Origin: Nitrosopumilus sp.
GTDB lineage: Archaea; Thermoproteota; Nitrososphaeria; Nitrososphaerales; Nitrosopumilaceae
NCBI GenBank assembly: GCA_965204345.1
Contig: OZ241981.1
Location: 128,001-192,000 of the forward strand
DNA length: 64,000 nt
Direction: 5' to 3'
The notes beneath the pieces are model-generated. The model had not been told where the DNA came from and made no database searches. It saw only the letters and a program-made list of their open reading frames with translations. How positions within the stretch are numbered: position 1 is the stretch's first letter; every line of letters begins with the position of its first letter. This document shows, piece after piece, positions 21,225 to 54,648 of this stretch. The position numbers and the translations under genes were made by a program.

Positions 21225-21722
21225 TTACCATGCTTTGCCCTGTTCCCTTAATTTTGCCTGCATGTCTTCTGAAATTGTTTTTAATGTGTGCAGATCATAG
21301 TTTGCGTTTGTAAAGTTTATCGATGAAAGTGTCGCACCCTCAAAGTTTGCATGTCTCATATTCACTCCGCTCAAATCCGCATTTTCCAAATCCGCATTTT
21401 CCAAATCCGCATAAAACAAATCCGCGCCATTTAGATTTGCATTGCGTAAATCCGCGCCATACAATTCAGCATCCCATAGTTTTGCGTTTGAGATATCCGC
21501 ATTACGCAAATCAGTTCCTCTCAGCTTGACATAAAATAAGATTGCCCCGCTCAAATCCGAGTCACTAAGATCAGTGCGGCTCAAATCCGCATTGTGTATG
21601 TCTCTGCCATGCAGGTTCACTCCTTTCATGTTTGTATCTGACAGATTCCTCCCAATCAACTCCTCGTATTCAAAATTTATTTTTGAGAGATTTCGCCTTT
21701 TAAACACATCTGATGGGTTCAT
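21225..21722 (-). CDS. pentapeptide repeat protein
   Basis: A(D/N)Lxx repeats; 15-nt periodic aaatccgc in DNA. Confidence 0.92.
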   Translation of the reverse strand: MNPSDVFKRRNLSKINFEYEELIGRNLSDTNMKGVNLHGRDIHNADLSRTDLSDSDLSGAILFYVKLRGTDLRNADISNAKLWDAELYGADLRNANLNGADLFYADLENADLENADLSGVNMRHANFEGATLSSINFTNANYDLHTLKTISEDMQAKLREQGKAW

Positions 21723-32545: not shown

Positions 32546-33514
32546 TTGGAATATCTTGATGAATTAAATGATAATGACGCTGTAAATTTGGACCTCATTA
32601 TCATACATAAAGAAAAACCAACAGTCACAAAAAATCCAGAAAAATATATGACCGTACTTCAGATAGCCGATAAAACCAAAACAATCAAAGCCAGGTTTTT
32701 TGGTACAGTATCACAATGTACTGATTTTTACAACAATATTTCTATTAATAAAGTGTATAAAATTGTAGGCAGCTTTAGTGAAAAATATAACAGCATCACT
32801 ATAAACCATCATGAATTGGAATTGGTTACTGAACCTGATTTTTCAAAACTTGAAAAAGAAATCAGAACTGATCCAGACCAAGTTCATGATTTAATGGCTT
32901 TTATTGAAAAAATTAAAGATAAACAAATTAAGCAAATTTTGGATAAAGTTCTTCAGAGAAAAGATCTTATTGAGAAGGTCTCCTGCTGGCCTGCTGCTTC
33001 ATCCTATCATCATGCTTATCCTGGTGGATTGATCACTCATATTTTAGAGATGTTAAGATTGAGTGAATCTATATGCAATGAATATAAAAATATTAATCGT
33101 GATCTTTTATTTTGTGGTTGTATACTACATGACATAGGGAAGATTATTGAATACGATGTACAATACTCTACAACATTTTCTCAAAAAGGCAGACTATTAT
33201 CACACATACCAATCGGTTTTTTCATAATCGGTGAGATTATTATCAAAGAAACTAACTGCAGTAATGAGATGCAAAATCATATTTTACATATGATATTAAG
33301 TCATCATGGAGATCCTAAAACAAGTCAATCATTTATGCCGCCAAAAACTTTGGAAGCTGTCGCCCTGCATAATGTTGATAAGTTATCTGCTACTTTGGCT
33401 CCGTTAAATGAATTATCTGTTGATACCAAAGGATGGAAGAAAATTAAAGATATGGAATATTATTTTGGAGATGAAGAATCTGAACAAACATCTAATTCTT
33501 TGGGCAATGATTGA
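32546..33514 (+). CDS. OB-fold + HD hydrolase, YhaM/Cbf1-like 3'-5' exonuclease
   Basis: PAASSYHHAYPGGL..H, LHDIGK, ILSHHG, PKTLEA...D. Confidence 0.88.
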   Translation: MEYLDELNDNDAVNLDLIIIHKEKPTVTKNPEKYMTVLQIADKTKTIKARFFGTVSQCTDFYNNISINKVYKIVGSFSEKYNSITINHHELELVTEPDFSKLEKEIRTDPDQVHDLMAFIEKIKDKQIKQILDKVLQRKDLIEKVSCWPAASSYHHAYPGGLITHILEMLRLSESICNEYKNINRDLLFCGCILHDIGKIIEYDVQYSTTFSQKGRLLSHIPIGFFIIGEIIIKETNCSNEMQNHILHMILSHHGDPKTSQSFMPPKTLEAVALHNVDKLSATLAPLNELSVDTKGWKKIKDMEYYFGDEESEQTSNSLGND

Positions 33515-33752: not shown

Positions 33753-35995
33753 TTGAATTTAAAAGTAACATTGCCGATGATAATTTTCTCACTAGTCCTC
33801 CTGTTTGCATATCCTTTAGATTCTGCATCCTAGACTGATGATGAGGATGCACAGCTTGCAGTGCCAGGCAATCTTATCCCGGCTGAGAATACATTAGGTT
33901 CTGTTGCAAGTGTGGATGTACCACCCAAGTTTGATGGCGGCTTTTATGGCAAAATCCAGGCCTCATATCTGAGGTACCCCAAGATGGCGACTATGGGGTA
34001 CATGACGGCACGCGATACTATGATGTCCTAATTATAGTGGCCAGAAGTGATGGTATAGATGCAGATGAGACAGCGCGCAAGAACAAGGATGCAATAGTAC
34101 AGAGACTTGATCTTCTTGGCGCACGTAACATAGCATCTGCAGAGTCACTCTCATTTGTGACTGCATCCATCCCAGTTGCAGACGTTCTGGGACTCTCACT
34201 TTATGACGAGGTATATGCCATGGGAGATGGTGAAATTCCCGTGACTCTGGAGATTGATACGGCTACGGGAACCGTACATGCAACTCCCGATGAGATTCAT
34301 ACTGCGACTGGCACAAATCTTGATGGCAGTGGAGTTGTTGTGGCAATCATTGACAGAGGCATCAACCACGATATCGCATTTATGGGCAGAATCGATGGGC
34401 GTGTAGAGTGCGATGATACGTGTGAGCCTGCAACTGCTGATACTGTGATCGGCGTTAATAGTACTAATCATCTTTCTCGTAATTTTACATCCCATGGTAC
34501 GCATATAGCCCAAATCCTTGCCGCATCAGGACTGCCTGCTCATAACGGCATTGCCCCTGGTGTAAAACTTTTGGATGCCTCAATTACCAGGCACAGTGTA
34601 GATGACGATAACAACCGTACCTTCATTAGTGCAAACAGAAATGACGTGGCACATGCCCTTGACTGGTCTCTCAAAAAAGGAGCCGACATGGCAGTCATGA
34701 GTTTTGGTTTTGGAATCTGCAGTGGAGATTATGGAAAGACAACCAACCTCATCACAAATGAGGCAGTTGACAAGGGAATGGTTCTAGTATCATCTGCAGG
34801 AAACAGGGGCATAATTTATGGAGCGCCAAACCAGCCAGTTTATCATCTATATTCTGATATGTTTTGTATATGCAATAATGGCATAATTTATGGAGCGCCA
34901 AACCAGCCAGTTTATCAGTCTATAACTCATCTCGGATGCGGACACAATGAAATTACCGTAGGCGGAATAAATGATCGTGGTCAAACAATAACAAGGGCAG
35001 ATTTTTCAGGCATGGGTCCCGTACCCGGAACAGTCCTGCTAAAGCCTGAGATAGTTGCACCTGCACATCATATTCAGACACTGGACAATGTTGCAGAAGC
35101 TGACACTTTTAGTCCTCGGTCCGGAACCAGCCTTGCTGCTCCCCAGGCAAGTGCAACTGCTGCCCTGTTGCTACAGGCAAAACCTGATCTGACCCCAGTT
35201 GAGATAAAGACAATACTTCTTCTTGGGGCTGACTGGCAGGGTCCAATCCCTTGCACGTCTGCACAGTATGAAAAAAACAATTCCACCGACAACTGTTCTC
35301 ATGCCAGACAGCCCTCGGATCCTTTTGAGGCAACCAATGTTGCATCCCTTGGAATACTAAACAATGTGGGCTTTGGCATACTAAACACAGCAGAGTCACT
35401 CAGGTATGCTCACAGTGAATCATCCCATGTAATGTCACACTATCTAAAGTCAGATACGCATACAAAGCAGTACGAGTTTGACGTACAGGACACATCAAAG
35501 CCAGTCAAAGTGATACTGTCATGGCTGGTTCATCCGCATGGCAGTATAACCGGACAGTTGACGACTAATGATACAGCAGTCCCTATTACCAATCTTGATT
35601 TTACAATATTGTCTCCGGATAATGCTACAATACAGGCAACATCATCCCACCAGACAAACGAGTTTGCAGTGTTTGCCCCCACTCTACTAGGAACATACAC
35701 CATAACAGTTAGCGGCTCTAACATTGATAACATAAACAAGCCTGTACAAAACTTTGCACTGGCAAGTACCAATCCTCTTACACTTGTAGGTGACAGTATA
35801 CTGGAGAGAAAAATAGAGAGATACAACTCTACACAAATCAGAATTACAGATATCACAGAAGACATTAAACAGTTAGAGCAAAAATTACAGGACAAAAAAG
35901 ACAATCTGGCAGAACTAGACTCGTTACTTTCCAAGCTTTATCTGCAAATTATAGAATTGGCCCCTGATGGTTACGAATTTCCATTCAAGGATTGA
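33753..35995 (+). pseudogene. S8 subtilisin-like protease; catalytic part open (34037-35995) but signal/pro region broken by TAG at 33831 and a frameshift near 33960
   Basis: IIDRGI, SHGTHIA, SAGN, GTSLAAP triad motifs; upstream frame reads LKVTLPMIIFSLVLLFAYPLDSAS*TDD... Confidence 0.78.
34808..34917. repeat. 38-bp perfect direct repeat around a 34-nt insert
   Basis: ggcataatttatggagcgccaaaccagccagtttatca at 34808-34845 and 34880-34917. Confidence 0.97.
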
Positions 35996-36621: not shown

Positions 36622-39600
36622 ATGCCCACACTATCTATGGCCGGAATTGCAGTGTCTGGATTTTTGGTTTTGGTTGCCGTGATGATGATAATGGCAGTGA
36701 TGATGCCAGCACATGCTGCAACCTCGGACTCGCCACTTGACCAGCATCATGCAGGCATACCAATAGATGGGATTCAGTGCAATGACGGCAAGCTTTTGAT
36801 GGTGAACCTTGCAGGCAAGCCAGTTTGCGTAACTGGTGATTCTGCCATGAAATTAGGAGACGGGGGCAGCAGCGGCAGCAGCATATATGCCACGACGGCA
36901 CACACACCAGAAACATCCCAAAAAGCCAATGAACCTTTAAGTGAAAAGATCACAAGCCAGACAGACACGCATGTATTTACTGACAAAGAAAAGCAGATTA
37001 TCGCTGATTACAAGAAATCTTCAATATTATCATCACCTGGAATTCTTATACACAGTTATTCCTTAGATCTCTCAGAATCACCCAAGGTGGGCCAAACTGC
37101 TATGATAAACTTTACCGGTATCTACACTGATAATACAAATTTTGAGCCATACATGGAACCATTCACGCTAAAAGTATTTGCCAATCCTGGTGACAAAGTT
37201 TTGTTTCATGATGATGCAGTAACAAATGCAGGCTCTGATGATCCAACCATCTTTGTGCCATTTGATAATAAAGTCGGATATGTAGTAGATGAGCCCGTGC
37301 CGGGTAGGGCTTATACCGTGATGGTTACTGTAGAAATTCTAGAGGAGGGATTTATTGAAATTGACGCATTGCGCTTTGATTCTTTAGAATCCCGTGGCGG
37401 TGTCTACCTTGCAATATCTGATGAATATTCTATATCAGAAAATGAGTATATGGATGAGGGACACACATTTTTGGATCACATCATTTTAGCTAGGGCATCT
37501 AGTTCTGAATCTTTTGCACCTCAAGAAGATAGCGGACTTGGCAATGAAGCGAGGTCTGAGGATGAGATAGTTGATGAGGTTTTGACGGATAAAAGAGTAG
37601 CTGAAATATATGCCAACCACCTGCGACTTTTGGGTGAGATAGTTGTCAATGATATTGGCAAAGTCAATGACGATTTAATTGGATGGCTTGCTGATAAATC
37701 CCTTCCATTAGATGATGTAAAAATTATTTTGAGACACTCTAATTTCACGCAGGCGCAAGTAGATGATGTAATGGAGAGATACGAGGCAGATTATACTGGT
37801 CCCCCGGATATGACGGATGGTGAAGCAACAGCAGCAGCAGCAGCAACAACAGTAGTAGCAGCAGCAGCAACAACAACAACAACAACAGCAGATGGCTCCC
37901 CCACAGATACCGCTGCTGCCCCAGCATTCCCCGTAGCTGCAACTCAGGAGGCGTCTGTTGGTGCAGCAGAAGACTCTTCTTCCAACACTTTTTCCATTGA
38001 AGGCACCGTATCTGCTCAACTTTATCTTTCCCGCACCACGCAACCCATCAACGGGATAGAAGTCTGTGCCTATGATCAACTTGGATCTACCCGTAGTGCA
38101 TTGACTGTATTGCTTACAACTGAGGGTGAAGATGCCTGCACATTTACATCCAACAGGGGAGAATATCGCATAGATTCTATCCAAAATGATGATCCTGATG
38201 ATGAATCAAATGTTGATCTAGTTATCAGAGTTAGTTCCAGGGGTTCAAATGATTTAGTCGTGCATGGTATATCTGGTGTTTATATAGAGTCATCTACCAG
38301 AGTTTTGAACTTTAGTGATGATACAAGAATGTTTGATTTTGTATTGAACGGCCGTGATGCAAGAGCATCTGGTATAATCAATGCAATCTCTGATGGCCGT
38401 GATTTTTTTAGTCATCACGGTATTCCTCCTGAGGAGCTTACTGTAAAGTGGGAGTATCGTAGACTTGCTAGTGTTTTTCCAGACTATACCCGTAACAATG
38501 CTGGATATATACTATCTGCGAACACCATATTTCTTAGCAGTTTTCCTTCTATCGCTGATAATGCTTTACACAAAGATCTCATATTGCATGAATTTGGCCA
38601 CTATATTATGGATATACAAGGTGTATTTCCATTCCTGCTGCGTTGTTACACTGATCTAAACAATGATGGTGATTTTGATGATATCGGTGAGACATCTCAT
38701 TATCTTCAACACCCAACTAATCGTACATGTGCATGGACAGAAGGTTGGGCTAATTTTGTTCCTAATTTAGTTACCAATTCGTCAAGTTTCGATAGTACCC
38801 CTTTTGGTATTATTAATTTGGAGCAAGACAGACAACAGTTAACTACTAATAACTTTATAGATTTTTTACCCGTAGATGACTTTGATCTTATTGGAGAACT
38901 CGTTGAAGGACAGGTAGCCGGAGCGCTATGGGATATCAAAGATCATAACGTTGATGAAATATTTGACAATTTAGAACAAAGCAGTAACGGTACTAACTTA
39001 GATAACCTGCAATTAGGCGATGATGAAATTATTGATGTATTTAAGAATGGAAGATATCATAATTTTAGAGATTTCTATGCTGCATGGGAAGATACAGAAT
39101 ATGATTCTTCATCTGACATTATGAGACTTCACCACATGAACTTTGCAATCCCAAACGATCTACCCCCGCCATCAAACATAGTGACTGACAGTTTTAACAC
39201 GCTTGACAATTGGAGTCAATCTGGCGCCTCTTGTTCGGTTCGCATCTCTGAGATTTGTTTTAACACGCTTGACCATTGGAGTCAATCTGACAATGACATG
39301 TGGGAGATAAATAGTGCCCACAAAACCATTCCAGATTCTGCCAGCGACAATACGGTGGCAACATCTAGCAACTGTGGTTCCGCTTGTTTTATTACACTTA
39401 ACCAGCCACTAGACATAAGAGAGCCTCTTGTAGTATCCTTTGATAGATTTGTTGATAGGAGAATTAACTCAGATGAAGGTCTGTATGTGCAGTACATGAC
39501 AGACTCTAGATGGGTGACACTGGCACAATATACTGGTATGAATGGGAATAATACCGACAACTGGCACTCTGAAGCCCTGACACTTAGCCTACGTGATCAA

Positions 39601-42600
39601 TCACAGACATTACTGCGATTTGTGGCAGACTCAAGCGGAGACAATGAATTCGTAGAGATTGATAATTTTAACATCTCGCCACTACCATTCACATTTACAG
39701 CCGGATTTACAACCGAATTCGTCATTACTCTGTATTTCCCTGTAGGACATGATACTAATTTTACAGCAAGTGATTTTAGCCTGTCTGAGGGAGCAATCAA
39801 CTCTATTAGTGTTAGTCGCAATGGCGAAATATTGCGCATGTTTACATCAGGCATTCCATATAGTACGCCAGTTACAGTAACCTATGTTGGTTCTGATTTT
39901 GGTTTTGATGGCAGTGATTCACAGTCACGCCCCACAGCCACCGTAACCAACTTCGGAAGGCCAGATAGATCAACCTTTGCTGATATCACTTTGCGTAACG
40001 GAGAGACCCGTACTGTAAGCGTGTCTGCACCCAATGCCGACCATGGACCAGTTTCATGGGACCTATTAGAAGCTCCAGACTTTGTCAGCATATCCCGTAC
40101 TGGTAATGGTACGGCAGACGTTATCATCTCTCCGCATAACGCCACCGTTGGCACTTATCTTGTTCGGGTATTCGCGGAGGTTGTCTCATTTTCTGGTCGG
40201 TCAATAGATATTCATGTAACTATTGACGACGGCGACGACAATACTGACCCGCCAGATACCACAAACCCTGTAATTACTGCTCCTGCTGATCTCACTGTAG
40301 AGGCTACCGACATTCGTACACCTGTGAATACTGGTACGGCATCAGCTGCAGACAATTCAGGTCCAAGCCCTGACATAACTCACGACGCACCACCAGACAA
40401 TTTCCCACTTGGCCCCACAACAGTTACATGGACTGCCACAGATGCTGCAGGAAACACAGCTACTGCAACACAGACGATAACCGTACAAGACACAACACCG
40501 CCTGCAATACAAAAGCCTGAAGATATTACAGAAGAGGCTACCTCATCACTAACTGCAATACAGCTGGCAGACCCCACAGTAACAGATATCTTTCCTTTTA
40601 CCATAAATAGCAACGCAACTGCATCGTTTCCTCTGGGTGATACCATAATCGCATGGACTGCCACTGACGAATCTAGGAATATCTCTACAACAACTAGTAC
40701 GGTAACCCTAGTGGATACCACTCCTCCCACAATAGTACAGCCTGCACCAATAACTGTGGATGCCACAGCAGAACTTACACCCGTATCAATAAGCGCGCCA
40801 GCTGCAACTGACACGGTGGACTCAGGCGTTGTTGTTGCTGTAACTGACAGTAATACTGCATCATTTGCCGTTGGAACACACAACGTGGTATGGACTGCCA
40901 CAGATGATTCAGGAAATACCGCAACTCTCACACAGACAGTTACTGTCAGGGATGCAGTCCCAACAGACCCTCCAGACAATCCTGATACCGTTACCCTAAC
41001 CGTCTCTGTAGCTACAACTGCAGGTGATCTCACCAACCTTGCTACGGTACCATTTACGGCAACATTCAACAAGGATGTTGTCTTTGACCTAGGTGACATT
41101 ACAGTAACTGGTACTGCAAATGACGGCAATCCCACAGCATCCAACCTTGGCAGAACAGGCAGTATCTACACCTTTGATGTGGCACGCGGCTCCACAGACG
41201 GAACCGTGACCGTATCCATAGATGCAAACGCGCTAACAGACTCTGCAGGCAACCCCAACACTGCATCTGCTCCAGTTACCGTCACCATAGACACCCTTGC
41301 CCCGGCAGTCTCTGTAACTTCGTCTGCAGGCAGCCGCACCGGACTTGATACGGTACCATTTACAGTAGAATTTAACGAAGACGTTGAGAACTTTGTCCTA
41401 GATGACATTACAGTGACAGGCGATGCCAACGGTGGAACCCTTGCAGCAACCGGCTTTGAGACAGTTGATGCCCGCACATACACCTTTAACGTTGCAGGCA
41501 TATCCTCAGACGGAACCGTAACTGTATCAGTTGCAGCAGATGTGGCAGCAGACCTTGCAGGCAACCCCAACACCGCATCTGCCCCAGTTACCGTCACCGT
41601 AGACACCACAGTCCCATCAGTATCACTGGACACAACTGCTGCTGATCCTACCAACTCTGAGGTCATACCATTTACTGCAATCTTTAGCGGCAATGTCACA
41701 GGATTTGAGCGGTCTGACATCGTTGTGGCAATTGACGGAACCCAGGTATCTAACTCTGAGATTAGTCTTGACCTTGGAGGGGAAAATTCCGTTGTTGTGT
41801 CAATTGGCAGTACACAGGCATCAGATAGCCTGATAACTGCCTTTAATGTAATTAATGGCACCCATTACAACTTTGCAGTCACACACGGGATCACCACAGA
41901 TGGCAAGCTAGCAGTAAGCATACCTGATGGTGTGGTGGCAGGGGGCAACACGGGTGCCGTACATACTATTACGGTGGACATGGTAAACCCATCCGTATCT
42001 ATCACGCCTGCTGATGGCACCACCATTACTGGTGATGACCCTGTAACGTTTACTGCAACATTTGATGAGGACGTTGAGAACTTTGAGCTGGATGACATTA
42101 CAATAGCGGGCACTGCCAATGGCGGCACCCCCACAGCATCCAACATTAATGGAGAAGGCAGTGTCTACACCTTTAATGTGGCACGCGGCTCCACAGACGG
42201 AACAGTAACCGTATCAATAGGTGCAGGTATGGCAGCCGACCTTGCAGGCAATCCCAATGAGGCATCTAATTCAGTTACCGTCACCATCAGCACCACAGGA
42301 GATGAGATTGAGGCAGATATCCCCTCTGGAGGTGATGGTGGCGTAGTGACATATGAGCCATCCTCAAATCTGATCACCCTCAACGTGGTATCTGACACAT
42401 TGCCTGACACAATTATTGCCACTGATGGCCAGCTGCTTGACTTTAATGCCACCCCCACGTTTGCTGATGATGCTGCAAGCGGAGTAAAGAGTGTGAGAAT
42501 TTCTGATTCTACAACTGAGGTTATCACTGATGTCTCTGATTCCCAAACTGTATCTGTCACTTATCCAGCAGGTATAGTTGTAAACGGTTCATCAAATGAT

Positions 42601-44295
42601 TGGAGTGGCACCATTGCCGTTCCAACCCTTGTTACTGCTGGCACTGCTGTTGATCCTCCAGCCTCAAATGACGAGATAGGACTGGCATTCTCAGTCGGTG
42701 ATGGCAACACCAGATTAACATTTGATCAGGCAGTCAGGTTACTCTTGCCTGGCCAGGCAGACCATGAGGGAGCCTTTTTCTCAGGAGAGGATACAGATGG
42801 CAACGTGATATCACGATCACTGGTTGTGTGTCCGTTTGTTCCTGTCAATCAGACTACTGCCAATGACAATATTGGAGCTGGCACTGCGTTGGAATCCTGT
42901 TTTGTTCGTGATGCTCCTGATATGATCATCTGGACCACGCACTTTAGCTCATTTGGCTCATTCTCTACGGTTCCTGTAGACCCTACACCATCCACACCTT
43001 CTAGTAGCCGCAGTAGTAGTGGTGGCGGTGGCGGTGGTGGCGGTGGCGGTGGCGGTGGTGGCGGTGGCGGTACCTCCTCCTCCTCCTTCAGCGGCTCATC
43101 TGCTGCAAACAATGCCTCCGAAGCTGTTTTGTACGACGTACAGTGGGATGTCTGTGAGGCAAACACAATCAACGTAATAGCTGGTCCTGTAACTGACAGT
43201 CTCTCTGTAAAGCTTAGAACCAACGCAGGCATAATCACGGCAGAACGCTCTGATGAGCAGCCCTATACTGGAAGAATCTCATTTGATGCAAGCCTCTCAC
43301 CAAACGAGTCATTTGTACGCGTACATGTGGAAAATATCGCAGCAAGGGGAATATCAACTGATTCAAAGTCATTTAACCTCACCGAGTGTTCTGGTTCTGT
43401 ATCTGTAAACACATACGAGTTATCATCATCGCCTGTTATTACCGGTGGCAGTGCAGATGTAACACCTGATCTGCCATCCAAAAAAGCGGATTTCTCAGAT
43501 GACATTATCATGCCAGGCCCCATCCAAGTACAAACGCCTGACATAATACGTGAGTTCCTCAACGACTTTGCAGATATTACCAATACTAACACGGGTATGA
43601 AACTCACTGAATTCCAGACACTGCAATCAAACCCTGACAGATATGCCAAGACCGTCCTGGGAATCAGCGGACAGACAGTTACCACAGTTGCATTGGCAGA
43701 CAGACCCATCTCAGAGGAGAGTAACAACAACAGTGCAAACCTCTTCTTGCAAATCTCATCCAATGGTGAGAAGGTCAACTCCATGAGGGGCGTTCTCTTG
43801 GGAGGTGACACCATTGAGATTGTGGCAGGAGACAAAAGTAAGATCATCGTTCCAACATCTGCAGAAATTGCAATTGCATCTGGGGATGCAAACGTGACAG
43901 TATCTCAAAAATCAAGCATGAAAATTAATGACGGATCAACGCAGGTTGATCTGCCAGACGTGCTCAGAGAATTCCTAAATACCAACATTGAATTTACAAA
44001 CGAGGATACCGGTGAGGCACTAACGCAATACGTGGTGTTGCAGTCAGTACCAGATGTGTTTGCAGAAAAAGAACTTGGAATCTCAGGACAAACCGTAACT
44101 ATCATCGCGTTCCCAGACAGGTATGGCAGAGCAGACAGCAATGATGACCTGAATGTCTTTGTACAGTTTACGCACACTGATGAGCAGGTCAACTCTTTGA
44201 GAGGCATCCAGCAGGGCGGCAACGCAATCAGCGTTAGCACCAACGGCGCTGAGCAGGGAACACTGACACAGACAGTAGAGATTCCGCTGGGCTAG
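36622..44295 (+). CDS. giant secreted protein: SPLxQ module, Ala/Thr linker, gluzincin-type metalloprotease, jelly-roll, HYR x3, Ig-like (Big) repeats, poly-Gly linker, duplicated C-terminal domain
   Basis: signal peptide; LHEFGH (38587) and AWTEGWANF; HYR and FTATFxEDV...DLAGNPN repeats. Confidence 0.88.
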   Translation: MPTLSMAGIAVSGFLVLVAVMMIMAVMMPAHAATSDSPLDQHHAGIPIDGIQCNDGKLLMVNLAGKPVCVTGDSAMKLGDGGSSGSSIYATTAHTPETSQKANEPLSEKITSQTDTHVFTDKEKQIIADYKKSSILSSPGILIHSYSLDLSESPKVGQTAMINFTGIYTDNTNFEPYMEPFTLKVFANPGDKVLFHDDAVTNAGSDDPTIFVPFDNKVGYVVDEPVPGRAYTVMVTVEILEEGFIEIDALRFDSLESRGGVYLAISDEYSISENEYMDEGHTFLDHIILARASSSESFAPQEDSGLGNEARSEDEIVDEVLTDKRVAEIYANHLRLLGEIVVNDIGKVNDDLIGWLADKSLPLDDVKIILRHSNFTQAQVDDVMERYEADYTGPPDMTDGEATAAAAATTVVAAAATTTTTTADGSPTDTAAAPAFPVAATQEASVGAAEDSSSNTFSIEGTVSAQLYLSRTTQPINGIEVCAYDQLGSTRSALTVLLTTEGEDACTFTSNRGEYRIDSIQNDDPDDESNVDLVIRVSSRGSNDLVVHGISGVYIESSTRVLNFSDDTRMFDFVLNGRDARASGIINAISDGRDFFSHHGIPPEELTVKWEYRRLASVFPDYTRNNAGYILSANTIFLSSFPSIADNALHKDLILHEFGHYIMDIQGVFPFLLRCYTDLNNDGDFDDIGETSHYLQHPTNRTCAWTEGWANFVPNLVTNSSSFDSTPFGIINLEQDRQQLTTNNFIDFLPVDDFDLIGELVEGQVAGALWDIKDHNVDEIFDNLEQSSNGTNLDNLQLGDDEIIDVFKNGRYHNFRDFYAAWEDTEYDSSSDIMRLHHMNFAIPNDLPPPSNIVTDSFNTLDNWSQSGASCSVRISEICFNTLDHWSQSDNDMWEINSAHKTIPDSASDNTVATSSNCGSACFITLNQPLDIREPLVVSFDRFVDRRINSDEGLYVQYMTDSRWVTLAQYTGMNGNNTDNWHSEALTLSLRDQSQTLLRFVADSSGDNEFVEIDNFNISPLPFTFTAGFTTEFVITLYFPVGHDTNFTASDFSLSEGAINSISVSRNGEILRMFTSGIPYSTPVTVTYVGSDFGFDGSDSQSRPTATVTNFGRPDRSTFADITLRNGETRTVSVSAPNADHGPVSWDLLEAPDFVSISRTGNGTADVIISPHNATVGTYLVRVFAEVVSFSGRSIDIHVTIDDGDDNTDPPDTTNPVITAPADLTVEATDIRTPVNTGTASAADNSGPSPDITHDAPPDNFPLGPTTVTWTATDAAGNTATATQTITVQDTTPPAIQKPEDITEEATSSLTAIQLADPTVTDIFPFTINSNATASFPLGDTIIAWTATDESRNISTTTSTVTLVDTTPPTIVQPAPITVDATAELTPVSISAPAATDTVDSGVVVAVTDSNTASFAVGTHNVVWTATDDSGNTATLTQTVTVRDAVPTDPPDNPDTVTLTVSVATTAGDLTNLATVPFTATFNKDVVFDLGDITVTGTANDGNPTASNLGRTGSIYTFDVARGSTDGTVTVSIDANALTDSAGNPNTASAPVTVTIDTLAPAVSVTSSAGSRTGLDTVPFTVEFNEDVENFVLDDITVTGDANGGTLAATGFETVDARTYTFNVAGISSDGTVTVSVAADVAADLAGNPNTASAPVTVTVDTTVPSVSLDTTAADPTNSEVIPFTAIFSGNVTGFERSDIVVAIDGTQVSNSEISLDLGGENSVVVSIGSTQASDSLITAFNVINGTHYNFAVTHGITTDGKLAVSIPDGVVAGGNTGAVHTITVDMVNPSVSITPADGTTITGDDPVTFTATFDEDVENFELDDITIAGTANGGTPTASNINGEGSVYTFNVARGSTDGTVTVSIGAGMAADLAGNPNEASNSVTVTISTTGDEIEADIPSGGDGGVVTYEPSSNLITLNVVSDTLPDTIIATDGQLLDFNATPTFADDAASGVKSVRISDSTTEVITDVSDSQTVSVTYPAGIVVNGSSNDWSGTIAVPTLVTAGTAVDPPASNDEIGLAFSVGDGNTRLTFDQAVRLLLPGQADHEGAFFSGEDTDGNVISRSLVVCPFVPVNQTTANDNIGAGTALESCFVRDAPDMIIWTTHFSSFGSFSTVPVDPTPSTPSSSRSSSGGGGGGGGGGGGGGGGGTSSSSFSGSSAANNASEAVLYDVQWDVCEANTINVIAGPVTDSLSVKLRTNAGIITAERSDEQPYTGRISFDASLSPNESFVRVHVENIAARGISTDSKSFNLTECSGSVSVNTYELSSSPVITGGSADVTPDLPSKKADFSDDIIMPGPIQVQTPDIIREFLNDFADITNTNTGMKLTEFQTLQSNPDRYAKTVLGISGQTVTTVALADRPISEESNNNSANLFLQISSNGEKVNSMRGVLLGGDTIEIVAGDKSKIIVPTSAEIAIASGDANVTVSQKSSMKINDGSTQVDLPDVLREFLNTNIEFTNEDTGEALTQYVVLQSVPDVFAEKELGISGQTVTIIAFPDRYGRADSNDDLNVFVQFTHTDEQVNSLRGIQQGGNAISVSTNGAEQGTLTQTVEIPLG
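37824..37890 (+). repeat. (GCA/ACA)n trinucleotide tract, poly-Ala/Thr linker
   Basis: gcaacagcagcagcagcagcaacaacagtagtagcagcagcagcaacaacaacaacaacaacagca. Confidence 0.9.
39191..39289. repeat. 33-bp direct repeat (1 mismatch) around a 33-nt insert
   Basis: gttttaacacgcttgac(a/c)attggagtcaatctg at 39191-39223 and 39257-39289. Confidence 0.95.
43021..43071 (+). repeat. (GGT/GGC)17 poly-glycine linker
   Basis: ggtggcggtggc... flanked by Ser runs. Confidence 0.95.
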
Positions 44296-45881: not shown

Positions 45882-46682
45882 TTACAGCACTGTCTGTCTC
45901 TTGAGACTTTTTGTAAATGATGCAATTTTTGCTTCCAGCTTTTTTTGAGGTGTCTTTTCAATTAACTCTAGATATGCACTTCCAACAATTACTGCATCTG
46001 CACCTGCGTTGACGTATCTTCTTACATCCTGCGGCGTTGAAACTCCAAACCCGATTCCTATTGGAATGTCTCCCTTGGTCTGTCTTTTGATTTGTCTTAT
46101 TGCATCTAGCGTGTATTTCTTGATTCTGGTTTTTACCCCGGTTGTACCAAACACTGCAACCAAGTACAAAAATCCGGATGTTGCTTTGGATATTTTTTGA
46201 ATTCTTGCCTTCTCTGTATTTGGAGATATTAGAAATATGGTATCTGTCTTGTCTTTTGCGGCGTTTAGATACTCTTCTGACTCTTCAATGGACATGTCAG
46301 GCAGGATAAATCCGTCAATGCCTGCATCTTTGGCATCTGTGACGAATTTTGCATATCCCTTGTGGTATAGGATGTTTGTATATGTCATTAGCACTAGTGG
46401 GATGTCTGTCTCTTTTCTAATCTTCTTGACAAGATTGAAAAACTTTGCAATTTCCGTTCCTTTTTCTAGTGATACCGTGCTTGCATTTTGAATAACCGGT
46501 CCGTCTGCTAGAGGATCTGAAAACGGAAAACCCAATTCAATAATGTCTGCTCCCCCCTTTATGAGCCCCCTCACTGCAGATAACGTGGATTTTTCATTGG
46601 GAAATCCTGCCATGATGTATGAGACTAGGGCCTTTTCATTTTTTGACTCCAATTCCGTAAATTTTTCCTTAATTCTTGACAT
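45882..46682 (-). CDS. trpA: tryptophan synthase alpha
   Basis: [23 protein letters not shown]. Confidence 0.97.
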
Positions 46683-51749: not shown

Positions 51750-51947
51750 ATGATTGCCATGCCAGGGGTAAATCAAACAATCATGCAAGACATGCTGATT
51801 CTAAAAAAGCAAACAGCATCCACTACAGTAAGCAAGGTTGAATGCTATGTTTGTGGCAAGGGATTGCAGGACGGTCATTCCATTACTGCAAGAACGCTGC
51901 CAAATGGAATAGCCTTGTTCTGTGATGTCCACTATTATCAACAATAA
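51750..51947 (+). CDS. small Zn-finger-like protein (start uncertain)
   Basis: CYVC...FCDVH; last codons derive from the insert at 51937. Confidence 0.7.
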   Translation: MIAMPGVNQTIMQDMLILKKQTASTTVSKVECYVCGKGLQDGHSITARTLPNGIALFCDVHYYQQ

Positions 51948-52007
51948 ATGCAAGGATACAGAGCTAATGGCCAAATGGAATAGCCTTGTTCTGTGATGTC
52001 CACTATT
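51899..52007. repeat. 38-bp perfect direct repeat around a 33-nt insert
   Basis: gccaaatggaatagccttgttctgtgatgtccactatt at 51899-51936 and 51970-52007. Confidence 0.97.
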
Positions 52008-54648
52008 TGCTGCAATAGCTAAAAACATCAAAGAATTCCTTTGCACCATTTTTAGTCAATTCCTTATTTTTTGTTTGGCAATAGTTTGTAGTAAATGTGC
52101 ACTTTGGACAACCTCCCCAAACTTTTTGGTCTGCCTGTGTTTTATCTGCTGGACAGTCACAATCCCTTAACAAAGAAAGCCCTGCGGCCAATATTTTTTC
52201 AAATTCATCATAGATTATTTTACTGCACCCATTAAATCCGTCTGATGAGTTATCATAAAGGTAAATCACTCCATTTTCATAGTATGCATCAATATCACTT
52301 GATTCTGATTTTGTTAAAATTTTGCTTGCGTTCACTAGCATGTGTGTGATGGTATGCATCCTGGGATCACCGGCTATGGGATTTTTGGAGTCTGCTGCTG
52401 CCTTTGATATGAATTCTGCTGGTATCGTTACACTGGTTGCCGAGTGTCTTGATTTCCAATGAAAATTCCTCCATCCCGATATGCTGCTGCCATTATGCCT
52501 GGTAAATTTATCTGCTGATTCATTATAGTTTCCCTTCATGTATCCTGTAATTGTTCTATCCAGTGAAATTATTCCATACCGCAAAGATATTTTTTTATTC
52601 TTTACATTAATCTCCCTGTGCCTTGTTTTGCCTTCTGATGTCTGAATAACTGCCGTTCTGAGAATTGGAAATGTCTTCTTTCCCCTCTCACTTGATCTTA
52701 TCAGATATGCCCTTGCCCCATTTTGTGATTTTATTAACGAGCTTACTTCATAATTCTGCTTGTTAAAATGATACATTGCCTTTTGATGTAACTGATAGTA
52801 CCCTGCAGGTACTGCCCTGGTTCCAATTTTCATTGAATTATGGTATATGGAAATCTCGCCTGATGCCCCTCGCAAATTAACACTGTTTGCAAAATCAAAA
52901 AATTGGGATTTGTCTGATGTTGCCGCTGCCTCATCTTCAATTTCGACGGATTCTGCATGCCTCTCTGCGATTATCGGATTCCTCTTGTTGATTGGAACGA
53001 TGTGATCCTGTTTTAGATACTCATCAATATGGCGTGCAAAATAATGACAAGCTGCATCTTCTGGATCAAAGACGCAGATGGCATATGATTCCTGTCCCAT
53101 GCGTCCTGCCCTTCCGATTCTTTGAACAAACGAGTCAAATTCGTTTTTGAATGCAGAAATTACTACATCCACATGCCCTATGTCAATTCCCAACTCTAGC
53201 GTCGGCGTACATGACAAAACATCCAAGTCTCCTGCCTTCATTTGGGACTCGTACATTTTTCTGTCCCTTTGATCCAGCCCTCCTCTGTGAATCTGAATTC
53301 GTATCCCTTTGTTTGCTGTTTCCATATTTGATGCCAGAAATTCTGCGTCATTGTGTGAATTGCTAAAAACCAGCTGTGTTGAATTATTCCTGTGGCAGAT
53401 GGATGATAGCATTTCCATGGTTGTTCTTTGCCTGAACTTCCTAGGCATGATAAAAAACATGTGCATGTTTTGTTTTCGCCGAAACTTACTTTTGATATAC
53501 CTAAACGAGTCCTCAGGCAGATCAAACATGCTGGAAAAAAATTCCTTTGAATTATCCAGCGTTGCAGACGAGCCTACAAACTGCACCTTGCCCATGAATC
53601 TTTTCATTCTTTTTAGAACATGATATACGTTTGATCCGTGAAAACTCGTATACGAATGTGCTTCATCCATGACAATTATTTTTGCATTTTTGAATAACTC
53701 GTTCCATTTTTTATCCTGCAGTATTAAATGATAATTAATAAAATCAAAATTCGTTGCAATGATTAGAGCCTTTTTGCCAGACTCCAAAATCACCATGTCT
53801 TTGTATTCTGTACTCTGGCCTCCGTGAATTGAATATGCTGAAACCCTGTCTCCAAGATCACATTTTTGAATCAGGTCGGATATTTTTGAGATCTGATCAT
53901 CAATTAACGCATTTGATGGATATACCAGCAATGTGAATACTCCTGATGCTGAATTTTCTGTGATTTTTTGCAGTATTGGGATTGCAAATGCTTCTGTTTT
54001 TCCAGATCCTGTGGGCGCTGAAATTATTGTATCCCCTCCACTTAGAATTGCTTTGATGGATTCCTCCTGAAATGGGAGTACCCCTGCAAAGCCATATTTT
54101 TCTAGACCCTTTATGATATTCTCAGATAAGATGTCTCTGAGATTTGCAATTGGAATTTTTTCAGACTCTGAAGCAACTAATCGCTCATAATGGATTAATG
54201 CCAGGGATTCCTCTTTGTGGCCTTGAATTATCTCTCTAATTATGTAGTTATTATCAACTAGTGATTTTGGAATCTTGCTAATATCAAAAAGAATATCCTG
54301 AGGAATTAAAATTTTGGGTGCCGGATCTTTAGTTTTTGTTTTCACATGTTTTTTAATTTCATCTGGAAAGTATTCTGCTGATTCGCCGGAGACTGTGCAT
54401 TGATGGGGCTCATCTGTTCTTGAATCAATGGGGATAAATTTTCCACTATCTGATTTGAACCTCTCATCCCAGTAAATCTCTGCCCCGCATCCTTTGGAAC
54501 ACTGTTTTGTTCTTCCTGAATAGTTTACTCCATATGTTGGAGCTTTTACCATGATTTTTTCAGGATTGCACTTGGGACATATTCTCGGAGATCCTACATC
54601 CTCATGGCTTTGAACCAGTCTTGTATCACAGTCAAAACAAAATTTCAT
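52003..54648 (-). CDS. DEAH-box SF2 helicase with C-terminal DUF1998 (MrfA/Hrq1-like) and N-terminal Zn ribbons
   Basis: APTGSGKT, DEAH, TLELGIDIG, QRIGRAGR, YLYD...G...CDC...GCPKC. Confidence 0.92.
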   Translation of the reverse strand: MKFCFDCDTRLVQSHEDVGSPRICPKCNPEKIMVKAPTYGVNYSGRTKQCSKGCGAEIYWDERFKSDSGKFIPIDSRTDEPHQCTVSGESAEYFPDEIKKHVKTKTKDPAPKILIPQDILFDISKIPKSLVDNNYIIREIIQGHKEESLALIHYERLVASESEKIPIANLRDILSENIIKGLEKYGFAGVLPFQEESIKAILSGGDTIISAPTGSGKTEAFAIPILQKITENSASGVFTLLVYPSNALIDDQISKISDLIQKCDLGDRVSAYSIHGGQSTEYKDMVILESGKKALIIATNFDFINYHLILQDKKWNELFKNAKIIVMDEAHSYTSFHGSNVYHVLKRMKRFMGKVQFVGSSATLDNSKEFFSSMFDLPEDSFRYIKSKFRRKQNMHMFFIMPRKFRQRTTMEMLSSICHRNNSTQLVFSNSHNDAEFLASNMETANKGIRIQIHRGGLDQRDRKMYESQMKAGDLDVLSCTPTLELGIDIGHVDVVISAFKNEFDSFVQRIGRAGRMGQESYAICVFDPEDAACHYFARHIDEYLKQDHIVPINKRNPIIAERHAESVEIEDEAAATSDKSQFFDFANSVNLRGASGEISIYHNSMKIGTRAVPAGYYQLHQKAMYHFNKQNYEVSSLIKSQNGARAYLIRSSERGKKTFPILRTAVIQTSEGKTRHREINVKNKKISLRYGIISLDRTITGYMKGNYNESADKFTRHNGSSISGWRNFHWKSRHSATSVTIPAEFISKAAADSKNPIAGDPRMHTITHMLVNASKILTKSESSDIDAYYENGVIYLYDNSSDGFNGCSKIIYDEFEKILAAGLSLLRDCDCPADKTQADQKVWGGCPKCTFTTNYCQTKNKELTKNGAKEFFDVFSYCSK

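Follow-up and report, generated by a model that had tools for sequence, protein, structure and literature searches.

The window analyzed here, 64,000 nt of Nitrosopumilus sp. DNA (contig OZ241981.1, positions 128,001 to 192,000), contains the gene for a very large surface protein. Inside this gene, two copies of a short target flank a spacer-like insert of the same length (Table 1). The initial annotation had described a 33-bp duplication with a 33-nt insert at 39191-39289, and both the sequence and a direct-repeat search bore this out. The two target copies form a pair of 33 nt with 97% identity and a spacing of 66, and they differ only at repeat position 18 (A at 39208 versus C at 39274). 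The described addition of 22 amino acids was recovered as well: the translation reads SFNTLDNWSQS-GASCSVRISEIC-FNTLDHWSQS, and the 66 extra nucleotides are in frame. Exactly three direct-repeat pairs of at least 26 nt with a spacing of 40 to 160 were present in the window (at 39191, 34808, and 51899), while each of 100 dinucleotide-preserving shuffles of the window contained none.

Table 1. Positions, within the window, of the surface-protein unit, its host gene, and related features.
Feature	Position	Strand	Remarks
Host gene, 2557-aa surface-protein ORF with HYR and Big_12 domains	36622..44295	+	Frame open through the 66-nt addition
Copy 1 of the 33-nt target (pseudo-repeat)	39191..39223		Base at the mismatch position as in the empty site of the paralog
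Spacer-like 33-nt insert	39224..39256		No relation to the flanks
Copy 2 of the 33-nt target	39257..39289		Derived C at 39274
Sister event, 38-nt duplication (100% identical) and 34-nt insert	34808..34917		In frame in the subtilase S8 gene (34037-35995)
Segment of trpA, protospacer of sister event G000:C1:1385280	46508..46541	+	33/34 nt match, 0-1 nt junction homology
Sister event, 38-nt duplication and 33-nt insert	51899..52007		3' end of the DEAD-box/MrfA-Zn helicase gene

With as many as three mismatches allowed, the insert was found only once in the window (0.00 expected by chance). Compared with the segments on either side of the unit, it showed identities of 0.39 (preceding) and 0.30 (following), which is at the level of the null (mean, 0.36), so the unit is not a diverged tandem repeat. 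The state before insertion is preserved in the closest paralog of the host gene (G000:C1:1708593-1709025, minus strand; 89.8% identity over 433 nt), which carries one copy of the 33-nt target and neither the insert nor the second copy. Because the host gene had no DNA-level match among 40 relatives that could serve as an ortholog, this paralog was the only usable empty site. Set against the target duplication, it directly documents an insertion with target duplication.

Contigs in four of four sequencing runs, each run from a different study, bridge the whole unit with 0 gaps. Since the filled form recurs across four studies, the unit must be real and old, in line with the earlier argument that the one mismatch speaks against an assembly artifact. 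None of the contigs in the four runs represented an insert-free allele. One reported joint, where a single contig skips 273 nt and has 255 other letters in their place, was considered as an empty allele and was taken to be a paralog. Within the insert, the allele at 39251 differs in three of the four runs.

BLAST of the insert against its own genome returned 13-mers only and thus gave no local origin. Exact searches with the 33-mer gave no hits in any of the viral, metagenome, and genome contig collections, although such searches would miss a source carrying the alternative allele at 39251. Allowing up to three mismatches, we obtained no hits in 400 other genomes of the order, and blastn against phages and plasmids gave no match.

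The genome has a single CRISPR array, which comprises a 34-nt repeat core in five full copies, spacers of 34 to 38 nt, and a leader; its periods are 72, 68, 70, and 72. The genes cas4, cas2, and cas1 adjoin the array, and this cas1 encodes the sole Cas1 homologue in the genome. Four Pfam models detected no Cas6, Cas5, Cas7/DevR, or RAMP genes in the genome, and subtype-specific NCBIfam models returned no classification of Cas1. A weak Cas3_HD match in the window proved to be a generic HD/OB-fold protein. In relatives, related repeats are 36 to 37 nt long. Two relatives, G086 and G403, have complete systems of the same family. In G086, the locus runs cas7-cas5-cas3-cas1-cas2-cas4 and then the array, with at least 65 repeats of 36 nt at periods of 70 to 75; its repeat matches the native one at 28 of 34 positions. 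For G403, we counted 52 repeat pairs, most often at a period of 71-72.

Resemblance of the target to CRISPR repeats, another element of the initial annotation, held at both ends of the target and not over its whole length. Taking 8 nt per end in the best orientation, we counted 10/16 identities to the native repeat (P = 0.0064, with 20000 random genomic segments as the null); ungapped identity over the full length was 15/33 and not significant (P = 0.12). The GTTTTAA with which the target begins is the reverse complement of ...TTAAAAC, and the matching place in the native repeat and its relatives ends in ...TTGAAAC. By inspection, nothing in the AT-rich native repeat corresponds to the TTGAC/GTCAA stem that had been offered as a CRISPR-like feature. 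A target without likeness to native repeats together with an insert of local origin would have pointed elsewhere, and this was not the combination we found. The suggestion of CRISPR integration mis-targeted to a repeat-like site thus draws support from the resemblance at the target ends, the nonlocal insert, and the contigs from four studies.

The unit belongs to a genome-wide series. We recognized 29 confident, unique look-alike events in the 2.1-Mb genome, after removing from 44 clean pairs 8 duplicate copies, 3 pairs of the native array, and 4 doubtful cases. The latter comprised C1:250576 and C1:253461, which both belong to a single repeated element; C1:518900, which has a period of 63 and sits in a repetitive gene; and C1:718060, whose insert is a trinucleotide repeat and whose target is internally repetitive. 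Across the series, the median duplication was 36 nt (range, 26 to 42), the median insert was 35 nt (range, 30 to 48), and the median period was 71 nt, with periods of 69-75 in 25/29 events. These values correspond to the geometry of CRISPR arrays in the same repeat family: the median period falls within the 68-72 nt of the native array and coincides with the 71-72 nt seen for related type I-B arrays of two relatives. With a period of 66, the second shortest of the 29, the unit at 39191 lies at the short edge of the series. The same peak at 69-75 appeared in the spacings of all direct-repeat pairs of 28-45 nt in the genome, and of 35 pairs with spacings that are not multiples of 3, 16 fell at just 70, 71, and 74. 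Mismatches within the duplicated sequences amounted to only 3 in 1000 nt. For several events, paralogs retain intact empty sites. The 29 inserts are mutually unrelated, sharing only 9-nt matches at the level of chance. A transposon or insertion-sequence footprint was therefore rejected: the inserts have no termini in common, and the duplications are not short.

Resemblance to the native repeat extended to the ends of the other targets. Over the 29 events, mean end scores exceeded the null on both the leader side (3.52 versus 2.78, P = 0.00025) and the spacer side (3.48 versus 2.94, P = 0.008), and the target at 39191 was among the four best of the 29. The outer dinucleotide matched the GT or CT of the native repeat at 19/58 ends compared with an expectation of 10.6% (P = 5e-6).

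For five sister inserts, a source could be located within the same chromosome. Four could be aligned almost from end to end with distant loci, at 94-97% identity and with a junction homology of 0-1 nt; one of these sources is the trpA segment in the window. The fifth was an exact match over 30 nt. At event C1:1947301, the flanks of the source share 3-4 nt and 5 nt with the ends of the target. Outside this genome, the exact 34-mer of the trpA-derived spacer had no hit in any genome or metagenome contig. The flanks of the five protospacers, whose orientation is uncertain, revealed no common PAM motif.

Two events lie in the CRISPR locus itself. When read through, cas1 aligned end to end with Cas1 of G086 except for a duplicated VIKIKPYQKHYA around 12 codons that include two stops. 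This disruption has the 38+34+38 form of the series, a 72-nt insertion in a gene that is otherwise colinear with its intact homologue. In addition, the native repeat nearest the leader bears an event that is out of register and has a duplication of 40 nt. Because cas1 is broken today, present activity is impossible, and the link between Cas1 and the events is historical and circumstantial.

We scanned 400-kb samples from each of five relatives for similar events. The sample of G086 contained two. That of G403 contained none except two period-75 pairs, which we read as protein repeats; surface-protein repeats of 25 codons yield period-75 pairs that pass a simple filter in both G403 and G018, which makes these imperfect controls. 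In G018, which served as a Cas1-less control, a single isolated pair had a period of 74. The array of G017 itself has 30-nt repeats, and this relative had a family of four copies in which direct repeats of 32-36 nt enclose an insert of 36-49 nt. Events were absent from the sample of G063.

On the strength of these sequence comparisons, we put the probability at about 85% that the unit at 39191-39289 arose by off-target spacer integration by Cas1-Cas2 at a non-CRISPR site. The Cas1-Cas2 of the native locus would have made this and the other events. That locus would be a decayed, type I-B-like one, left with cas1-cas2-cas4, a leader, and an array of five repeats; Cas4 is encoded beside Cas1-Cas2. 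We envisage that the integrase, loaded with a prespacer of about 33 nt, attacked both strands of the surface-protein gene approximately one repeat length apart, and that gap filling then doubled the 33 bp between the cuts to leave target, spacer, and target. Its ends resemble those of the native repeat, which is probably why this site was chosen, and the event would have survived because 66 nt keep the frame and are tolerated in a surface protein. The insertion into cas1 may have ended the activity. We lean, with less assurance, toward a wider account in which an effector-less type I-B remnant underwent a natural burst of promiscuous integration. This burst would comprise about 29 independent insertions, among them in-frame peptides in the giant surface protein and the subtilase, one at a tRNA 3' end, a possible array seed, and a final hit in cas1 that possibly switched the process off.

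A simple model with two rulers, one for the duplication and one for the insert, leaves part of the data unaccounted for. Duplication and insert lengths were negatively correlated across events (r = -0.80), and several of the short duplications extend further with mismatches that cluster at the junctions; such a model predicts neither pattern. These patterns leave some room for a different integrase or insertion process, one with a stagger of about 36 bp acting on fragments of about 35 bp, whose likeness to CRISPR would be a coincidence or a legacy of a lost second system. The broken state of cas1, the family in G017 (a relative with an array of 30-nt repeats), and the period-74 pair of the Cas1-less G018 favor such a process too. 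Nevertheless, we regard it as improbable. The genome has no second Cas1 homologue, the period agrees with native and sister arrays within 1-2 nt, target ends resemble native repeat ends, and the native array itself bears one such event. Moreover, no transposase is known to make duplications of 33-39 bp.

Still less probable is templated insertion during replication or break repair, in which synthesis would switch to a distant locus, copy about 35 nt, and return upstream so that the target is duplicated. The five inserts copied from distant chromosomal segments and the homology of 3-4 nt and 5 nt at C1:1947301 are what such a process might leave. In four of the five source-insert pairs, however, junction homology was limited to 0-1 nt, and the insert at 39224-39256 has no template in its own genome. 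Template switching also predicts neither the concentration of periods at 69-75 nor CRISPR-repeat-like ends, nor the absence of events from the G063 sample.

Two further explanations retain almost no probability. Given that the host gene is one of a family that encodes repetitive surface proteins and has paralogs, an ordinary 66-nt tandem duplication with a diverged middle, or an assembly artifact, might be suspected. Yet the copies are 97% identical while the insert matches its neighbors at random, homology to adjacent sequence covers just 33 of the 66 added nucleotides, what the paralog lacks is precisely the insert and one copy, and the gap-free contigs oppose an artifact. We likewise give next to no weight to the idea that the unit functions as a mini-CRISPR locus, or neo-CRISPR, and gives rise to guide RNA, since for all its repeat-spacer-repeat form the unit has two copies only, lies inside an open frame of 2557 aa, resembles the native repeat at its ends alone, and shares the genome with none of the four gene types sought with the Pfam models.

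Off-target integration by Cas1-Cas2, the reading we prefer, has several points of comparison. Casposons also use a Cas1-family integrase that makes target-site duplications; they span kilobases, carry terminal inverted repeats, and produce duplications of about 14-15 bp, unlike the present inserts, which are unrelated sequences of 30-48 nt in a genome whose only Cas1 adjoins cas2 and cas4. The module shares the order cas1-cas2-cas4-array, a related repeat, and the period of about 71-72 nt with the canonical type I-B system of G086, from which it differs in lacking detected effector genes, in its five full repeats, and in having integrated chromosome-wide rather than at the leader-repeat junction. 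Nivala, Shipman and Church reportedly described in 2018 off-target integration in Escherichia coli, termed neo-CRISPR, with over-produced type I-E Cas1-Cas2 and supplied oligonucleotides. Those events reportedly share with ours a spacer-length insert, a duplication of approximately repeat length, and non-CRISPR sites with repeat features. They differ in that ours are natural and lie in an archaeal genome whose module is type I-B-like, where about 29 are fixed, several in frame inside genes and one in cas1. In a study of Pyrococcus furiosus (PMC6698737), Cas1-Cas2 integrated off target in vitro at non-CRISPR DNA with specific repeat features and with a spacing set by the enzyme; that substrate was a plasmid, whereas here chromosomal scars are common to four runs. 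Isolated or orphan mini-arrays, which like our unit consist of one spacer between two repeats at a distance from cas genes, have reportedly been ascribed in part to off-target acquisition (Shmakov et al. 2020, CRISPR J., via PMC13142298). Natural cases appear to be few, with "circumstantial evidence" described for two species, and the literature that we searched contained no natural genome with a comparable number of scars, several of them in frame inside genes.

The mechanism of integration is thus already known experimentally, from over-produced enzymes and in vitro, and off-target integration has been invoked for the origin of new or orphan CRISPR arrays. What the series would add is a record of the targets accepted by an archaeal Cas1-Cas2 (ends like those of the repeat, about 36 bp apart), along with pairs of natural targets and empty sites that make the question of specificity directly testable. 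It would also record the mutational cost of adaptation in the genes, tRNA end, and cas1 that were hit, and it would show a CRISPR integrase able to add segments of 22-25 aa to proteins. If this reading is true, CRISPR adaptation has worked in nature as an insertional mutagen across the genome, giving rise to protein insertions and proto-CRISPR loci alike.

The positions of the events bear the mark of purifying selection, as only in-frame insertions appear to persist inside long genes. The period was divisible by 3 in all eight events inside still-open frames of at least 120 aa, and it was not divisible by 3 in 14 of the 29 events overall. Nine paralogs of the subtilase S8 gene in the genome are without the event found in that gene. 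The helicase gene (52003-54648, minus strand) has its stop codon within copy 2 of the adjoining event, which therefore left the coding sequence unchanged. Elsewhere in the series, one event partially duplicates the 3' end of a tRNA, and a pair of adjacent units resembles the seed of a new array.

The unit at 39191-39289 consists of two copies of a 33-nt target (39191-39223 and 39257-39289), identical save for one mismatch (39208 A versus 39274 C), around a middle 33 nt unlike either copy, as the initial annotation had described. The 66 added nucleotides lie in frame and translate as ...SFNTLDNWSQS-GASCSVRISEIC-FNTLDHWSQS..., which bears out the 22-amino-acid addition proposed there. Identity of the insert to the segments flanking it on either side (0.30 and 0.39) was at the random level (null mean, 0.36). 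Direct-repeat pairs of at least 26 nt at a spacing of 40 to 160 occurred exactly three times in the window and zero times in each of 100 dinucleotide-preserving shuffles.

Paralogs of the host gene are present within the same genome (G000; contigs C1 and C9 below belong to it). In the closest of these (G000:C1:1708593-1709025, minus strand; 89.8% identity over 433 nt), the 33-nt target is single and is followed directly by the sequence found downstream of copy 2 in the window. The unit is an insertion with target duplication, and because the paralog has the base of copy 1 at the mismatch position, the C of copy 2 is derived. We also compared contigs from four runs of four studies (dated 2010, 2019, 2024, and 2024), three of which are labeled as sponge metagenome or metagenome. 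A single contig bridged the whole unit without gaps in each of the four, so the event is real and present in every run compared; the earlier argument against an assembly artifact, made from the single mismatch, was thereby upheld. No empty site was found among these contigs, and three of the four runs had a base change within the insert (39251 A>C). In contigs of runs X1, X2, and X7, 8 of 10 differences from the window were packed into 31 nt (39049-39079), which suggests exchange with a paralog.

Similar units occur throughout the genome. A scan for direct-repeat pairs covering all 2.12 Mb (nine contigs) revealed a sharp spacing peak at 69 to 75 among pairs of 28 to 45 nt, and 16 of the 35 pairs with a spacing not divisible by 3 were spaced at 70, 71, or 74. 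In 44 pairs, the middle was unrelated to the copies and a third copy was absent; removal of eight duplicate copies (from repeated elements) and three native-array pairs left 33 events, and 29 remained once four doubtful cases had been set aside. Among these 29 events, the median duplication was 36 nt (mode, 38), the median insert 35 nt, and the median period, i.e., duplication plus insert, 71 nt, with 25 periods between 69 and 75. Duplicated copies differed at only 3 of 1,000 positions in all, and no sequence was common to the inserts. Insertion-free paralogs or repeat copies are known for at least eight events; C1:1400070 has nine of them, at 99.3 to 100% identity. The period was divisible by 3 in all eight events inside open frames of at least 120 amino acids that stay open; it was not in 14 of the 29, and those 14 sit in short frames or none. 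This is the pattern expected from frame-blind insertion combined with selection against frameshifts.

Coordinates of the unit and of related features
Feature	Location	Details
Unit under study	window 39191-39289	33-nt duplication around 33-nt insert
Host gene	window, ORF 36622..44295	2557 aa; HYR and Big_12 domains
Sister event	window 34808-34917	in frame in subtilase gene
Sister event	window 51899-52007	just beyond stop codon of helicase gene
Protospacer of event C1:1385280	window 46508-46541	in trpA
Two events 3 nt apart	G000:C1:486267-486486	different pseudo-repeats (duplicated targets at non-CRISPR sites); outside window
Native array	G000:C1:1886280-1886667	five full copies of 34-nt core repeat plus one truncated; periods 72, 68, 70, 72
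Off-register event in leader-proximal native repeat	G000:C1:1886549-1886660	40-nt duplication, 32-nt insert; outside window
Event splitting cas1	G000:C1:1888134-1888243	member of the series; outside window
Four-copy family of relative G017	L044-L063 (G017:C1:1020001-1420000)	periods 72-81

The events were mildly clustered (12 gaps shorter than 20 kb versus 7.0 expected; P = 0.013). In the second event at G000:C1:486267-486486, the duplicated segment takes in the final 23 nt of tRNA-Ser(CGA) and the 15 nt that follow it, with copy 2 keeping the tRNA gene whole; the two-event pair resembles the beginnings of a two-unit array. At G000:C1:1400000-1425000 and 2008000-2032000, both outside the window, lies a repeated element with at least 11 copies (99 to 100% identity), two of which share one event and nine of which are empty. 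A neighboring element of ~3.6 kb, present as three tandem copies, has another event in each of them. Since copies of repeated elements have events in common, some events are older than local duplications. Event C1:499885 has an insertion-free counterpart on a small contig (C9:1020-1449), which matches the flanks of the event at 96.5% identity and could be a paralogous copy or come from a variant strain.

Across the 29 events, duplication and insert lengths were inversely correlated (r = -0.80), with their sum conserved. This is partly because short duplications (C1:1400070, 193709, 1704438, and 905180) run on for 7 to 10 nt with one or two mismatches beside the insert, where 6 of 8 further positions match at C1:1400070 and 8 of 12 at C1:193709. 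The mismatched run-on implies that the period is conserved and the duplication length is not.

The only CRISPR array of the genome adjoins cas4, cas2, and cas1, and its repeat was found neither in the rest of the genome nor in any of 100 further genomes from the same genus. The sole Cas1 homologue holds two TAA stops. Translated past these stops, it can be aligned over its whole length to the intact Cas1 of relative G086 (C-terminal 151 amino acids, 61% identity), the exception being a block with two occurrences of VIKIKPYQKHYA around 12 codons carrying both stops. Because this block is a 38+34+38 event at the DNA level, cas1 was itself struck by the process that produced the series; an insertion of the type attributed to the integrase appears to have landed in the integrase's own gene. 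Within the array, 27 of the 40 duplicated nucleotides of the off-register event come from the repeat and 13 from the neighboring spacer. Four Pfam models for effector genes (DevR/Cas7, Cas5, RAMP, and Cas6) had no match in the genome. A candidate Cas3 at window 32546-33514 was rejected as a generic HD-domain protein with an OB fold, its Cas3_HD match being weak (22.9 bits, below the cut-off).

In G086, the homologous cas1-cas2-cas4 genes come after cas7, cas5, and cas3, which belong to a type I-B-like system, and before an array in which a 36-nt repeat is present in at least 65 copies (periods 70 to 75). When the native repeat is reverse complemented, the two repeats agree at 28 of 34 positions. 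A related array in a second relative, G403, comprises 52 repeat pairs, and its modal period is 71 to 72. These arrays fix the orientation of the native repeat, which ends in ...GATTGAAAC, and identify a duplication of ~36 nt with an insert of ~35 nt as the geometry of this CRISPR family. We then compared 8 nt at each target end with the native repeat, using whichever orientation scored higher. For the unit under study, the proposed CRISPR-repeat likeness held at the ends (10/16; P = 0.0064) and was not significant over the whole length (15/33; P = 0.12). For the 29 events, scores were 3.52 versus 2.78 at the leader-side end (P = 0.00025) and 3.48 versus 2.94 at the spacer-side end (P = 0.008), and 19 of 58 ends had the outermost dinucleotide GT or CT found in the native repeat, versus 10.6% expected (P = 5e-6). 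Only about one-third of sites are clearly repeat-like, which implies relaxed specificity.

As controls, we passed 400-kb samples of five relatives, one per genome, through the same filter; the relatives are not mutually independent, and each sample is about one-fifth to one-quarter of its genome. Two spans of this size in G000 held 10 and 9 pairs at periods 62 to 80. In G063, which has no Cas1 match, none of five pairs fell in this range. G017, with a different array of 30-nt repeats, had besides it only one four-copy family, in which direct repeats of 32 to 36 nt flank an insert of 36 to 49 nt with a run of 11 to 14 G; a run of nine G also occurs in the insert of G000 event C1:1539958. There were two off-array events (35+34 nt) in G086, one of them 0.7 kb beyond the array, and two pairs in G403, close together and both of period 75, which we read as protein repeats. 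G018, also without a Cas1 match, had nine pairs at periods 62 to 80: seven belonging to a single block of repeats with 75-nt periodicity, one of period 63, and one isolated at period 74. With arrays and families excluded, pairs with a period not divisible by 3 numbered 14 in G000 and 0, 0, 0, 0, and 1 in the samples.

The inserts behave like spacers. Those of C1:330574, C1:486267, C1:500922, and C1:1385280 have near-full-length matches to distant loci on the same chromosome (34/36, 34/35, 30/32 [33-nt insert], and 33/34 nt, respectively), with 0 to 1 nt of junction homology; the exact 34-mer of the C1:1385280 insert was absent from the other genome and metagenome contigs searched. That of C1:1947301 has an exact 30-nt match with 3 to 5 nt of extra homology at each end. 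The insert of the unit under study had no detectable source in its own genome, in 400 other genomes of the order at up to three mismatches, in viral, metagenome, and genome contigs searched for the exact 33-mer, or in phages or plasmids; spacers in CRISPR arrays are usually without a detectable source. A local origin, named initially as a counterargument, thus gained no support, and the suggested search for a PAM yielded no motif common to five sister protospacers. Between inserts and their chromosomal sources, 7 of 138 positions differed when the C1:500922 insert was counted at its full 33 nt, compared with 1 of 147 between duplicated copies of the same four events; the excess may reflect detection bias toward identical copies.

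Off-target integration by Cas1-Cas2 is the best-supported account of these events. The 3' ends of a prespacer would each attack one target strand, at points separated by about one repeat length, and the target would be duplicated once the resulting single-stranded gaps were repaired; two-strand attack with gap repair is the established mechanism of Cas1-Cas2. We infer that the Cas1-Cas2 of the G000 locus was the enzyme involved, that such events became tolerable once the effector module was lost, and that the strike in cas1 ended the process. Four rivals, namely, an unknown integrase of the same stagger, replicative template switching, simple tandem duplication or artifact, and a working mini-array, are unlikely even when taken together.

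Nivala et al. reportedly observed, in 2018, off-target integration in Escherichia coli overproducing Cas1-Cas2. Papers citing Nivala et al. 2018 speak of rare off-target events and of "circumstantial evidence" in two other species, and another study describes off-target integration in vitro by Pyrococcus furiosus Cas1-Cas2 at sites with repeat features (PMC6698737). Three origins have been put forward for isolated arrays, and off-target integration is among them (Shmakov et al. 2020, as cited in PMC13142298). Type I-B loci are described in a survey of thaumarchaeal mobile elements, which mentions no such footprints in the passages covered (PMC6563490). Provisionally, a full-text literature search, excluding Nivala 2018, Shmakov 2020, and supplements, returned no natural genome with many such scars, no in-frame cases inside genes, and no cas1 strike. 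The unit is probably a natural case of known off-target integration, and the genome-wide picture is of greater interest than the single unit.

Repeats of other kinds were also seen in the window. Trinucleotide-type repeats at 37821-37889 and 43010-43071 encode runs of Ala/Thr and of Gly in the 2557-aa gene, and a 15-nt tandem unit (CAAATCCGCATTTTC) is present four times at 21357-21431.
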